IMG/VR virus record: IMGVR_UViG_3300042566_000740
Location: 1-25,764 of that record
DNA: 25,764 nt
Reading direction: 5' to 3' (one strand)
Source of the DNA: a virus
Taxonomy: Duplodnaviria > Caudoviricetes
The notes under the pieces were generated by a model. It saw only the letters and a program-made list of their open reading frames with translations. It did not search any database and was not told the origin of the DNA. The position numbers and the translations under genes are program-made. Positions 3,370 through 6,451 of this stretch are shown piece by piece; position 1 is the first letter of the stretch; every line of letters begins with the position of its first letter.

Positions 3370-3382
3370 ATTTAGTTAGGTT

Positions 3383-3409
3383 TACGGTTATCCTCAAACC
3401 GTATTTTTT
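3383..3409 (+). terminator. Intrinsic terminator-like hairpin
   Basis: TACGGTT-atcctca-AACCGTA followed by TTTTTT. Confidence 0.6.
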
Positions 3410-3431
3410 AAAACTTCAAAACTAACTAACA

Positions 3432-3641
3432 ATGGAACTAAAAATGTATTTAGCTTATGATGGTACTTTAATGATACATCAAGTTAATGAAGCGGGCAAA
3501 GATTTATTTTTTCAAGTCGATATTTCACGCGGTTATAATACCAACGAATCAGACTTGGACAATTATGAAGATGAAGCCGACTACTTCAAAGCCTTAAAAC
3601 AATCTATTGCTAACAAATTTAACTTAGAAAAAGAATCATGA
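3432..3641 (+). CDS. Hypothetical protein
   Basis: 69-aa ORF with A-rich leader; ATGA-coupled to the next gene. Confidence 0.7.
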   Translation: MELKMYLAYDGTLMIHQVNEAGKDLFFQVDISRGYNTNESDLDNYEDEADYFKALKQSIANKFNLEKES

Positions 3642-3967
3642 AAGTACAAACAGAAATAACAGAATACGATAATGATAATAAAGAATACATTATTGACATA
3701 ACAGCTGAATATTACGAATATGAAAAAGGCAGCCGTGACAGCTTTGGCGTACCTTTAGAACCTGATTACGGTGCTTATTTTGTTATTGAGGACATTATGA
3801 TAAATGGTAAAAACCATTCGCTTAATGAAATTGCTTTGCTTTTAGATTATTCTGTTGACTATGTTAATGACATTATTCAGGAAGCATTGAGCGATAAAAT
3901 AGAATCTGATTTATATTCTTATTATGACAACCAAATTGATGACTACTATGAAAAAAATTATTATTAG
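3638..3967 (+). CDS. Acidic hypothetical phage protein
   Basis: 109 aa, D/E/Y-rich, motif EKGSRDSFGVPLEPD. Confidence 0.75.
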   Translation: MKVQTEITEYDNDNKEYIIDITAEYYEYEKGSRDSFGVPLEPDYGAYFVIEDIMINGKNHSLNEIALLLDYSVDYVNDIIQEALSDKIESDLYSYYDNQIDDYYEKNYY

Positions 3968-4103
3968 TGCCTTAATTGGCATTTTATTCGGCTTAACAGC
4001 TGGTTTAACACTCGAAAAATTATATCTTATGTTAGCACTTGCATTTATTGGCGGCACATGCCTTGGAATCGGTTTAATTTTGTTAATTGATAAAAAGAAA
4101 TAA
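3948..4103 (+). CDS. Small membrane protein (51 aa, two predicted TM segments)
   Basis: MKKIIISALIGILFGLTAGLTLEKLYLMLALAFIGGTCLGIGLILLIDKKK*; fills the gap between annotated ORFs; not in the supplied track. Confidence 0.7.
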   Translation: MKKIIISALIGILFGLTAGLTLEKLYLMLALAFIGGTCLGIGLILLIDKKK

Positions 4104-4104
4104 T

Positions 4105-4308
4105 ATGACAGCAGTAGAATTTTTAATTAAGCAGGTCGGTTTAGACCATACAGATGTTTGGAAAAAAGAAATTGAAATAGCCTTAGAAATGGAAAGGCAG
4201 CAGATTGAAAATGCTTTTAATGCAGGTGTTAATAGCGAAGATTTCTTTTATTTATCTACTGGAAAATTAGAATGTGAAATATACTATGAAGAAACTTACA
4301 AAAAATAA
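4105..4308 (+). CDS. Small phage protein, 'MTA(I/V)E(W/F)L...YYnETY' family (second copy)
   Basis: MTAVEFL...ALEMERQQIENAFNAG...IYYEETYKK; ATG 4105 lies just after the upstream TAA and aligns with the paralogue start. Confidence 0.78.
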   Translation: MTAVEFLIKQVGLDHTDVWKKEIEIALEMERQQIENAFNAGVNSEDFFYLSTGKLECEIYYEETYKK

Positions 4309-4320
4309 ACTTGGCTAACG

Positions 4321-4447
4321 GCTTTGTCTAAGATTGCGCAGTCTTATGCATTAACTCAACTTTGGATTGAGGCACAAGTAACTTTCGGTGATGTTGAATG
4401 ATTAGATTCTGAAAAAACCGATGACAGCTGGAAAGACAGCATTTTTT
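4321..4447 (+). ncRNA. Candidate structured non-coding RNA
   Basis: Intergenic; several hand-found stems (4330-4345, 4355-4371, 4385-4421, 4427-4440) ending in GCTG-GAAAGA-CAGC plus a T-tract. Family not identified. Confidence 0.4.
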
Positions 4448-4466
4448 AACTTTAAAATAAATAACA

Positions 4467-4622
4467 ATGGAAGAAACAGCATTTGATTTACCAGAAACAA
4501 CAAAGTTAGAAATCATTGAAAAAATTAAAGCATTGGCTTGGGAAATAAGAAATGATTGGAGTGACCCAAGAAATGAATGTAGAAAAATTGTAGAACTTTG
4601 TGAAAAATTAAAACAATTATAA
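4467..4622 (+). CDS. Hypothetical protein (51 aa)
   Basis: MEETAFDLPETTKLEIIEKIKALAWEIRNDWSDPRNECRKIVELCEKLKQL*; conserved A-rich leader; not in the supplied track. Confidence 0.7.
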   Translation: MEETAFDLPETTKLEIIEKIKALAWEIRNDWSDPRNECRKIVELCEKLKQL

Positions 4623-4628
4623 AGTAAA

Positions 4629-4743
4629 TGTCCTGTGGCGGAATTGGTAGACGCTAAATAAGATACTGTTATAAGGGAATACGTGCTCCGCAAGAGTGCT
4701 ACAGTAAAACTAACCCATACAGGTTCGAATCCTGTCAGGACTA
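4629..4743 (+). ncRNA. tRNA-like RNA (Leu-type D arm, canonical T arm, no canonical anticodon arm)
   Basis: Acceptor GTCCTG/CAGGAC, D arm GCG-GAATTGGTAGA-CGC, T arm ACAGG-TTCGAAT-CCTGT, discriminator A, no encoded CCA; 64 nt between the D and T arms. Confidence 0.8.
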
Positions 4744-4767
4744 TTTTTTAACTTCAAAACAAACACA

Positions 4768-5364
4768 ATGAAAACCATACTATTCTTAGCATTACTACTC
4801 CTTATCGGATGTAAGGCACACCAACCCGAACCCGAACTAAATTACGAGCTTATCGATTTAATCGAGGATGACACAATAGGATACGCAACACCTTGCAATT
4901 TAAAAAACAAAGCAACTATACCGACACACGTTGACCATTACATAAAACGTTTTTTAAGAACAGCGCAAAACGAAGCTAAACTATTTAATATTCCCGTTAG
5001 CATAACACTTGCGCAGGGCATTATAGAAAGCAATGCAGGGCGTTCAAATCTTAGCCGCAAACATAACAACCACTTTGGTATTAAACACAGCGGAAAAGGA
5101 AAATATGCAGTTTATAAAGACGACACACCACGCGATAGATTCCAAGTCTATAAATCGCCGTGGTGGTCATATCGGGCGCACAGTAAACTATTAACTTCAA
5201 AACGTTACAAACACCTTACACGGTTAAATAGATTGAATTATAAAGCATGGGCACACGGTTTAAAAAAGTGCGGATATGCAACCGAAAAAAAATATGCTGA
5301 AATACTAATTTCTGTAATAGAAAAATACGACCTTTGGCAATATGATTTTCCAATTTTTCCATGA
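4768..5364 (+). CDS. GH73 glucosaminidase/muramidase (FlgJ-like) with lipoprotein signal peptide
   Basis: IPVSITLAQGIIES (catalytic Glu), NNHFGIK, GYATEKKY (YATD-like motif); N-terminus MKTILFLALLLLIG-C resembles a lipobox. Confidence 0.88.
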   Translation: MKTILFLALLLLIGCKAHQPEPELNYELIDLIEDDTIGYATPCNLKNKATIPTHVDHYIKRFLRTAQNEAKLFNIPVSITLAQGIIESNAGRSNLSRKHNNHFGIKHSGKGKYAVYKDDTPRDRFQVYKSPWWSYRAHSKLLTSKRYKHLTRLNRLNYKAWAHGLKKCGYATEKKYAEILISVIEKYDLWQYDFPIFP

Positions 5365-5584
5365 CAAAATTAAAGGCGATGAATGGTATGTAGTTGAACA
5401 ATTGCCCGGCGGCAATTATAAAGCTATTTGCACGCGTCAAACTAAAGTTTATAAATTAGGCTCAGTTAGAAACTTTTTTTTTGACGATTGCGAAATATGG
5501 ACAAAAGGAAAATTAAAACCTAATAATCATTCTTTAACACTAAAAACAAAATACAATGGTAAACCGCGTAACGCTAATCGGTAG
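5342..5584 (+). CDS. Hypothetical protein
   Basis: 80-aa ORF overlapping both neighbours in operon fashion. Confidence 0.6.
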   Translation: MIFQFFHDKIKGDEWYVVEQLPGGNYKAICTRQTKVYKLGSVRNFFFDDCEIWTKGKLKPNNHSLTLKTKYNGKPRNANR

Positions 5585-5912
5585 GGTTGGCAAAGAACCC
5601 GAACAAAAACAATTTGGCGAAAAGACATTAACAAAATTTAGCTTTGCAACTTCTGAAAGTAGCAAAGACAAAAACGGCGAATGGCAGGAAAAAACACAAT
5701 GGCATCAAGTCAGCTATTGGAATAACATAACAATTGAAAAGGGCGATATGTTATTCATTGAAGGCAAAGTAGAATACCGTGAGCATGAAGGTAAATATTA
5801 TACTGATATTATCGCATCATATTGCAGAAAAATGAACACGGGCCAAAAAGCCACGCCTGTTGAAGTTGAAATATTGCCAGTAAAAAATAATGATGCTGAT
5901 TTGCCTTTTTAA
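5556..5912 (+). CDS. ssb: Single-stranded DNA-binding protein
   Basis: MVNRVTLIGRVGKEPE, FSFATSE, TQWHQV, IEGK OB-fold motifs and C-terminal DADLPF. Confidence 0.95.
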   Translation: MVNRVTLIGRVGKEPEQKQFGEKTLTKFSFATSESSKDKNGEWQEKTQWHQVSYWNNITIEKGDMLFIEGKVEYREHEGKYYTDIIASYCRKMNTGQKATPVEVEILPVKNNDADLPF

Positions 5913-5980
5913 AACTTGTAAATATAAAATTAAAATCTTATTTTTATTACAGTTTTAGTTTTCATTAGTCTTTGGTTTGG

Positions 5981-6014
5981 ACCGCCTGTTTTTGAAGTTC
6001 AGGCGGTTTTTTTT
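5981..6014 (+). terminator. Intrinsic terminator
   Basis: ACCGCCTG...CAGGCGGT stem followed by a T-run. Confidence 0.8.
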
Positions 6015-6025
6015 AAAAGTAAGAT

Positions 6026-6451
6026 ATGTATTTAACATTTGAACAGGCATTTAACATGATTAAGCCAAACGGCGCTAAGAATGCCAACTATTCAGCAACG
6101 AGAATTAGACAGCTTATAAATTTAGGTCATTTAGTTGAGGCTAAACCTGAAATTTTTGTCGATGATAATAGCATATTTGTAAGTTTAGGCTACATTAAAA
6201 CCGAAGGCTTAGTTACTGAGGAATCAGTCAAAAGATATATTTTTGAGCGCAAAGAACTTAAAAACAAGTTAGGTAAGATTCCTAAAAAGAACCGCGAAGT
6301 TAAGGCATATTTTGAAGATGACAGCTATAGTAATTTTATGTCAATAGATGCGGCATGTTTATTTTTTGGCATATCAAGGGATAAGATAATGCGCAGTATT
6401 GAAAAGAAAAAATTTATTAAGGTTAAGAATGAATTGATAAAGTTTGTATGA
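6026..6451 (+). CDS. Putative DNA-binding protein with C-terminal NUMOD1-like HTH
   Basis: FMSIDAACLFFGISRDKIMRSIEKK resembles the NUMOD1 pattern (F.S..eAa..lgi....I); basic protein. Confidence 0.5.
   Translation: MYLTFEQAFNMIKPNGAKNANYSATRIRQLINLGHLVEAKPEIFVDDNSIFVSLGYIKTEGLVTEESVKRYIFERKELKNKLGKIPKKNREVKAYFEDDSYSNFMSIDAACLFFGISRDKIMRSIEKKKFIKVKNELIKFV

Follow-up and report, generated by a model that had tools for sequence, protein, structure and literature searches.

A tRNA-Leu-like phage element in which an exchangeable insert takes the place of the anticodon arm

We describe a phage element that has the body of a leucine tRNA, i.e. an acceptor stem, a D arm and a T arm, and carries a 64-nucleotide insert in place of the anticodon and variable arms. 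It occupies a 145-nucleotide intergenic gap, on the coding strand, of a 25.8-kb phage contig (25,764 nucleotides, here called the window) whose genes include a primase, SSB, endolysins, a holin and tail-type genes. We give about an even chance to the reading that the Leu-tRNA body without its anticodon arm is a natural scaffold. The RNA would be stable and non-decoding, and would present its exchangeable 64-nucleotide insert (the cargo) to a host factor, as a decoy or an aptamer. The parts of the element are as follows.

4629 to 4635, plus strand: 5′ strand of the acceptor stem; U1 mismatches U72, and in other bodies with the same cargo both partners of pairs 5:68 and 6:67 are altered.
4636 to 4654, plus strand: U8-G9 and a Leu-type D arm (A14, A15, G18, G19, A20a), with the D-loop core of canonical tRNA-Leu genes.
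4655 to 4718, plus strand: the 64-nucleotide cargo that replaces the anticodon and variable arms; its final base is U48, the partner of A15, and it is near-identical in contigs L304-L307.
4719 to 4735, plus strand: T arm with A49-U65, C50-G64 and A51-U63, pairs of the family type that are atypical for canonical Leu-type tRNAs.
4736 to 4743, plus strand: 3′ strand of the acceptor stem and the discriminator A73; CCA is not encoded.

All the parts (acceptor, D arm, insert, T arm and A73) and coordinates that an earlier, sequence-only reading of the window had named proved correct. The canonical tRNA-Leu features that are present are a paired acceptor (4629-4635 with 4736-4742, 6 of 7 pairs, with U1xU72 as the mismatch), the D arm, the T arm, A73 at position 4743 and A15-U48. 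A canonical anticodon arm, with a 5-bp stem, a 7-nucleotide loop, Y32-U33 and a purine at 37, is absent. In the loci that we fetched, canonical Leu-type tRNAs have 29-35 nucleotides between the D and T arms, so the insert is about twice the canonical length, as the earlier reading had also said. Across the 25.8-kb window there is only one copy of the D motif and one of the T-loop motif. The Rfam tRNA model matches the element with 31.8 bits (cut-off 29, E-value 0.0042) and no other Rfam family overlaps it up to an E-value of 1; the Rfam 15 covariance models gave no Y RNA, riboswitch, ribozyme or type III antitoxin match over the element at E ≤ 1. ARAGORN, whose use had also been proposed, reports neither a tRNA nor a tmRNA in the element, with or without introns allowed. 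The tmRNA resembles the element in having tRNA-like ends without an anticodon and a folded middle. The element differs from it in having U3-A70 and not G3-U70, only 64 nucleotides between its arms, no tag reading frame and no ARAGORN or Rfam tmRNA match.

Could the element be a tRNA-Leu with a small intron, which is spliced to give a working tRNA, as has been proposed for tRNAs of Lak megaphages? Oversize Lak phage tRNAs are interpreted as intron-containing (10.1101/356790). One of our own loci also resembles a tRNA-Leu with an insert in the anticodon loop: L087:290-419 is a tRNA-Leu(CAA)-like gene with a 44-nucleotide insert within an intact anticodon stem, unlike the family described below, and is a candidate mini-intron. 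For the window cargo and two variants of it, no excision of at least 8 nucleotides that starts at cargo positions 6-14 rebuilds a canonical anticodon arm. Moreover, the bases that would have to form the anticodon stem vary among the cargo copies, and ARAGORN with introns allowed, which finds nothing in the window, assigns scattered anticodons to members of the family. We therefore hold splicing to be very improbable. The proposal of a non-decoding tRNA scaffold is supported, with its intact outer arms, its missing anticodon arm and no excision in this range that restores one.

The evidence for exchange comes from two directions, the first of which is the occurrence of one cargo in different bodies. 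The window insert is found on four metagenome contigs from one metagenome scan. Three of these (L305-L307) match the window over the whole element, and the fourth (L304) is 97% identical over window positions 4660-4736 and is truncated ahead of the D arm. Their cargos differ from the window at 2-4 positions, which lie in the hairpin and close to the 5′ end; the L307 cargo also has 2 extra nucleotides. By blastn, no part of the flanks of the four contigs matches the window, except for a second body in L307. The acceptor pairs 5:68 and 6:67 are altered on both sides in bodies with this cargo, so that one cargo is found in three acceptor variants. The near-identity of the cargo copies may result from recent transfer and not from selection. 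Across the family, 6 of the 22 cargo families with at least two elements are found in bodies with two or more differing acceptor positions.

The second direction is the variety of cargos at one position. The features that define this slot are listed here.

4206 to 4938, plus strand: variable block, of which the complete relative G003 has only the T arm and the end of the acceptor; the blastn blocks are 3378-4205 and 4939-6449.
4467 to 4622, plus strand: open reading frame of 51 amino acids that belongs to the swapped block and stops 6 nucleotides 5′ of the element.
4768 to 5364, plus strand: glucosaminidase gene (PF01832, E-value 4e-33), which begins 24 nucleotides past A73.

A search with the glucosaminidase gave 32 related loci. 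One (L180) was omitted because the slot is not covered, which leaves 31 relatives, two of them (L150 and L157) with just 367 and 169 nucleotides upstream of the gene. Six of the 31 (L149, L152, L156, L165, L166 and L177) have bodies 5′ of the glucosaminidase, seven in all, that host four unrelated cargos of 42-68 nucleotides, none of which is the window cargo. The other 25 have no body detected at the slot. L152 lies in G003, a complete 46-kb genome that is 95-97% identical to the window in the main blocks and bears an additional body without a counterpart in the window. A RecE-like exonuclease is encoded in G003, and a RecT-like protein 1.2 kb from the body in L305; these proteins may carry out the cargo exchange.

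These comparisons also bear on whether the element is simply a decayed tRNA-Leu that carries a random insertion. The U1xU72 mismatch, the lack of CCA and an insert no more stable than shuffled sequences are what decay could leave behind. That said, the anticodon arm leaves no trace, the insert recurs in other bodies, and the slot in relatives is filled with other inserts or with none. An ordinary tRNA-Leu in close relatives had been named in advance as an observation that would count against a scaffold, and the relatives hold none at the slot. The mismatch itself recurs, twice in locus L142 and once in RNA1 of phage T5 (in the canonical register), and bodies with U1-A72 exist, so it can arise by joining the halves of two variants. 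In L142 it stands beside both U1-A72 and A1-U72 variants, and this points to a shuffling of 5′ with 3′ halves. Decay, against which the sequence-only reading had already argued, is largely refuted and is the explanation to which we attach the least probability.

A cis-regulator specific to the glucosaminidase was considered and rejected, as the same cargo precedes other genes, and the same gene has other cargos or none. The suggested connection with a MazG-like gene did not hold up either, since that gene lies at a distance of 1.8 kb and relatives that lack the element have it too. The 51-amino-acid reading frame has no match in Pfam or PHROG. A promoter and terminator scan stayed close to shuffle level and gave no specific signal, and the best match of the primase among cultured phages is 35% identical and gives no host clue.

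Codons 1-47 of the glucosaminidase (window 4768-4908) are unlike those of most relatives, whose matches begin at residue 48 or later; by this comparison, the N-terminus was exchanged along with the variable block. A second non-coding module (window 4309-4441, plus strand) ends in a hairpin with a GAAAGA loop (4423-4441) and a T run. It has no Rfam match and a folding z-score of -0.19. The same end hairpin occurs in eight relatives behind a different middle, and a similar hairpin lies directly 5′ of bodies in gut Bacteroides prophage loci. We take it to resemble a boxB antitermination hairpin. A third conserved non-coding module, not present in the window, is found 5′ of the glucosaminidase in L149, L151-L156, L158, L160-L166, L174, L178 and L179; it ends in an A-rich stretch and may form a pseudoknot. 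The slot has the look of a small-RNA island. Some of the bodies in relatives (L152 with its T arm at 3566, L156 at 1323, and L177) have altered elbows, in which a D loop that lacks part of G18G19 and an 8-nucleotide T loop occur together; these are possibly a second elbow design. G003 also encodes its own sigma factor (L403:12083-12916).

The search for D-arm and T-arm pairs with a long spacer, which the sequence-only reading had recommended, shows that the element has many relatives in plan. About 630 viral stretches fit a pattern of D-arm core, 52-82 nucleotides and T loop, an estimate from 13 of the 64 parts of the viral collection; a prokaryote genome collection gave 82. In 120 fetched viral loci (100 distinct, unfiltered), an acceptor with 6 or 7 pairs is found in 112, compared with 24% for mismatched partners; all three outer T-stem pairs are found in 116, U48 in 117 and A73 in 95. 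None of these four features was part of the search pattern. A pattern with longer spacing gave 120 further loci, 112 of them with a paired acceptor. Of these 112, 64 have inserts of 81-137 nucleotides and 5 have short inserts, while 43 are canonical-length tRNAs that were matched via a neighbour. The longest insert in the family set has 161 nucleotides.

The statistics are based on 179 elements, all distinct, whose loci are viral or metagenomic. We left out the loci from the genome collection (61 elements, including the copies in L142, which were merged with the identical L316) as well as elements in which an arm looks canonical, the D arm is duplicated or the insert is shorter than 35 nucleotides. 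The 179 elements host 169 distinct inserts in 132 families, 113 of which are single. In L191, L271, L285, L292, L300 and L345 the cargos are about 120-133 nucleotides long and enclose another tRNA-like unit, which has a D loop and a T loop of its own. Four loci from Pseudomonadales genome bins (L331, L344, L361 and L364) are tRNA-like, with a 7-bp anticodon-like stem, a variable loop triplet and a long extra arm. A family member identical in sequence to L007 lies, unannotated, between a DUF2303 gene and ninG in the cultured Bacteroides phage BS-TP2 (L405:2501-2608).

The positions of the bodies also fit a different role, in which the body serves as punctuation and as a cassette joint. It would be an RNase P and 3′-processing signal at which the long phage transcript is cut and which determines where the following mRNA begins, its constant arms would anchor the shuffling of small genes, and the insert would be filler. 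An open reading frame starts within 50 nucleotides downstream of 87 of 172 bodies (median 26 nucleotides; 24 in the window), compared with 3 of 31 canonical tRNAs, and this proximity means that a processing role fits too. The bodies are interleaved with small reading frames in L127, L142, L143, L148, L152 and L307, and the window element sits within the swapped block, as a joint might. A processing signal has no need for an insert of 40-160 nucleotides, yet the inserts are structured as a class and one family covaries. Furthermore, whole inserts move intact between bodies, and 25 of the 31 relatives have the same glucosaminidase region without a detected body. We regard punctuation as a serious but doubtful alternative to the display of a cargo.

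A neutral or selfish mini-element is less probable again. In this case the body would spread by recombination or copying and tolerate any insert, with no benefit to the phage. Such an element would be expected to be patchy, as the bodies are (6 of 31 relatives), to occur in multiple copies per genome, and to include copies with altered D and T loops, as some do. It would not account for the two-sided acceptor changes or for the specific T-stem signature, no target-site repeats were seen, and T5 RNA1 is retained in 487 phage records.

The body has the bases that the leucyl-tRNA synthetase of E. coli recognizes. In E. coli the identity of tRNA-Leu lies in A73, A15-U48, G18G19, A20a and the tertiary pairs that link D loop and T loop, and variants without the anticodon and variable arms can still be charged (PMC9976931, PMC2377443). 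By these E. coli rules, the complete set is present in the window (A73, U8-A14, A15-U48, G18G19, A20a, U54-A58, U55 and C56). In the family, A73 is found in 153 of 179 elements and U48 in 176. As this identity is independent of the anticodon arm, it would explain why a leucine body is a suitable scaffold. The D arm was part of our search pattern, therefore the frequency of Leu-type D arms is not evidence on this point, nor does it show other bodies to be rare. The U1xU72 mismatch of the window may weaken processing or charging.

The family differs from the 33 canonical Leu-type tRNAs in the same loci in other parts of the body. A1-U72 is found in 86 of the 179 bodies and in none of the canonical tRNAs, and an encoded CCA in 8 and 11, respectively. 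The T-stem pairs C50-G64 and A51-U63 occur in 136 of 179 bodies and in none of the 33. With the values in Table 2 of PMC3239215, the T-stem term for EF-Tu is predicted to be +0.40 kcal/mol for the family and +0.01 for the canonical tRNAs (+0.4 for the window), a small predicted difference of 0.4 kcal/mol between sequences that are not independent. The T stem is thus predicted to bind EF-Tu weakly. A51-U63 also marks the non-ribosomal tRNA-Gly of staphylococci (PMC7826273).

These conserved parts raise the possibility that it is the body which is active. An abundant tRNA look-alike might absorb defence enzymes that read the acceptor, T arm or CCA, or might tie up LeuRS; the insert would then remove the anticodon loop and vary against recognition. 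Cas12a3 is such an acceptor-reading enzyme (PMC12851939), and the conserved parts are exactly the acceptor, the T arm and the region of the CCA end. What this idea leaves unexplained are the 132 insert families among 169 inserts, the presence of several inserts per genome and the intact transfer of inserts. It is unlikely, less so than a selfish element and more so than punctuation. A related suggestion from the sequence-only reading, a decoy for anticodon nucleases, we also consider unlikely, because these enzymes read the anticodon loop (PMC12851939) and this loop is missing here.

For the cargos, the evidence of folding is clearer for the class than for the window. The features predicted in the window cargo are the following.

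4664 to 4706, plus strand: predicted stem P1 (4664-4669 with 4701-4706) around a hairpin at 4683-4699, from the minimum-energy fold; invariant or with one wobble change in 5 copies.
4675 to 4716, plus strand: possible 3-bp pseudoknot between GGG 4675-4677 and CCC 4714-4716, after an A-rich linker, inferred from a descriptor match.

The two inner stems that had been drawn for the insert are indeed in its minimum-energy fold, yet the cargo is no more stable than shuffled sequences (-8.1 kcal/mol, z-score -0.05, with 87 of 200 shuffles equally stable). Between homologues the stems show one U-G/C-G change and no two-sided changes, in a set too similar for a test. Type III antitoxins fold as an H-type pseudoknot with an A-rich linker. 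A descriptor of this kind matches the window cargo and also 15% of its shuffles; the cargo can be drawn in the pseudoknot layout of the family, with a second stem of 3 bp only. As a class, the cargos have a mean folding z-score of -0.74 (169 cargos), compared with -0.20 for 166 3′ flanks. A terminal H-type pseudoknot with an A-rich linker is found in 62 of the 132 families, where 44.6 ± 4.8 are expected, and a control with reversed strings is likewise raised (54 against 44.4); across families, the enrichment of crossing stems is not above that of non-crossing stems (p 0.29). The best sign of a selected cargo fold is the family of L007, L325 and L011, in which the second stem is made by three different sequences, each with 7-8 complementary pairs. 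No cargo matches a non-tRNA Rfam family at the cut-off (40 sources scanned).

Searches for distant copies and for targets of the window cargo were negative. In a blastn search of 50,697 phage records, all matches to the element were of arm length only, and none extended over 80% of it. A hairpin pattern had 3 chance matches in unrelated coding DNA of viral contigs, and a 3′-end pattern had 2 matches, a copy of the L305 element and one by chance. These patterns thus gave no distant cargo homologue on which a covariation test could draw. In a sample of 401 Bacteroidota genomes, 15 match the cargo at E ≤ 0.1, all over 17-29 nucleotides, which is chance level; this phylum, that of G001, was sampled as many family members are in Bacteroidota records, and it may not be the phylum of the host. 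Within the window and G003 the best match elsewhere is 12 nucleotides long, and no antisense target was found.

How does the element compare with RNAs that have been described? The nearest is RNA1 of phage T5 (NC_005859, 30501-30644), annotated as a misc_RNA, ‘tRNA-like stable RNA with unknown functions’. It has a Leu-type D arm, an 80-nucleotide insert that ends in U, a T arm, a paired acceptor with U1xU72 (in the canonical register) and no anticodon arm. The window element, once put forward as undescribed, is therefore not so in the strict sense. There are differences: the T5 insert is not homologous and falls outside the cargo cluster of the window (blastn, E 1e-4), and T5 RNA1 lies within a tRNA cluster and has no A at 73 in this register, whereas the window element is alone before a protein gene. 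T5 RNA1 is also matched in 487 phage records, with 80% or more of its length covered, while the window element is optional and its insert is exchanged whole. T4 species 1 RNA (rnaC) and T5 RNA2 are likewise stable phage RNAs that have a T arm at the 3′ side and a folded central part, but their 5′ arms are not Leu-type D arms and, unaligned and judged by eye, they have no sequence similarity to the window element.

The ‘enigmatic introns’ of Lak megaphages are oversize tRNA genes with inserts, one of them nesting a second tRNA, that are identical across cohorts (10.1101/356790). Similar nesting is found in our family set. The Lak inserts are read there as introns in tRNAs with an assignable anticodon, whereas no excision yields an anticodon arm in the window; some of the Lak introns may be the same kind of RNA. 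In the engineered tRNA scaffold (PMC3753655), the acceptor, D and T arms are kept, the anticodon arm is the insertion site, and the cell processes and protects the RNA. That design retains a hairpin stalk at the insertion site, whereas in the window both the anticodon and variable arms of a Leu-type body are replaced. A literature search found no description of a family with exchangeable inserts in tRNA bodies, with the old T4 and T5 RNA papers largely beyond its reach, and the cited passages of PMC9693318 do not mention the family.

We propose the following route for the scaffold that displays a cargo. The element would be transcribed within a phage transcript, from which RNase P and a 3′ nuclease would release it. 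Host enzymes would add CCA, and the host would probably leucylate the RNA, which would bind EF-Tu weakly and take no part in decoding. The body would then present the cargo, as the engineered scaffold does, in a fold that is a prediction for the window, and the cargo would serve an anti-host or anti-defence job. Cargos would be exchanged by recombination via the constant D and T arms. We favour the role of decoy or aptamer because genes in conflict with a host would be expected to be optional, to vary widely in cargo and to be exchanged laterally, as is the case here. A bolder version is possible, though clearly less probable than the scaffold as such. The phages would share a natural RNA display library, in which a host-matured, leucine-charged tRNA-Leu body is kept off the ribosome and recombination between unrelated phages exchanges the folded cargos, of which many are pseudoknots. 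Each cargo would target a defence or regulatory protein of the host, as a decoy or an aptamer. By analogy, and just as tentatively, such a library might be the RNA counterpart of anti-defence protein cassettes.

In summary, the sequence-only reading was partly borne out, and what it missed is that the insert is mobile and exchangeable and that the element belongs to a family of hundreds. The plan of the T4 and T5 ‘stable RNAs of unknown function’ is that of a family of hundreds of phage genes, which ARAGORN misses or to which it assigns arbitrary anticodons. The locus offers a two-way test: one cargo in three bodies and one slot with five different cargos allow body and cargo to be tested separately, and a cultured carrier exists in Bacteroides phage BS-TP2. 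Even if the cargos are inert, some calls of ‘intron-containing’ or odd-anticodon phage tRNAs would need revision. If they act on host proteins, the family would offer a large and so far unused source of functional RNAs from nature, and would be the natural equivalent of the laboratory scaffold.
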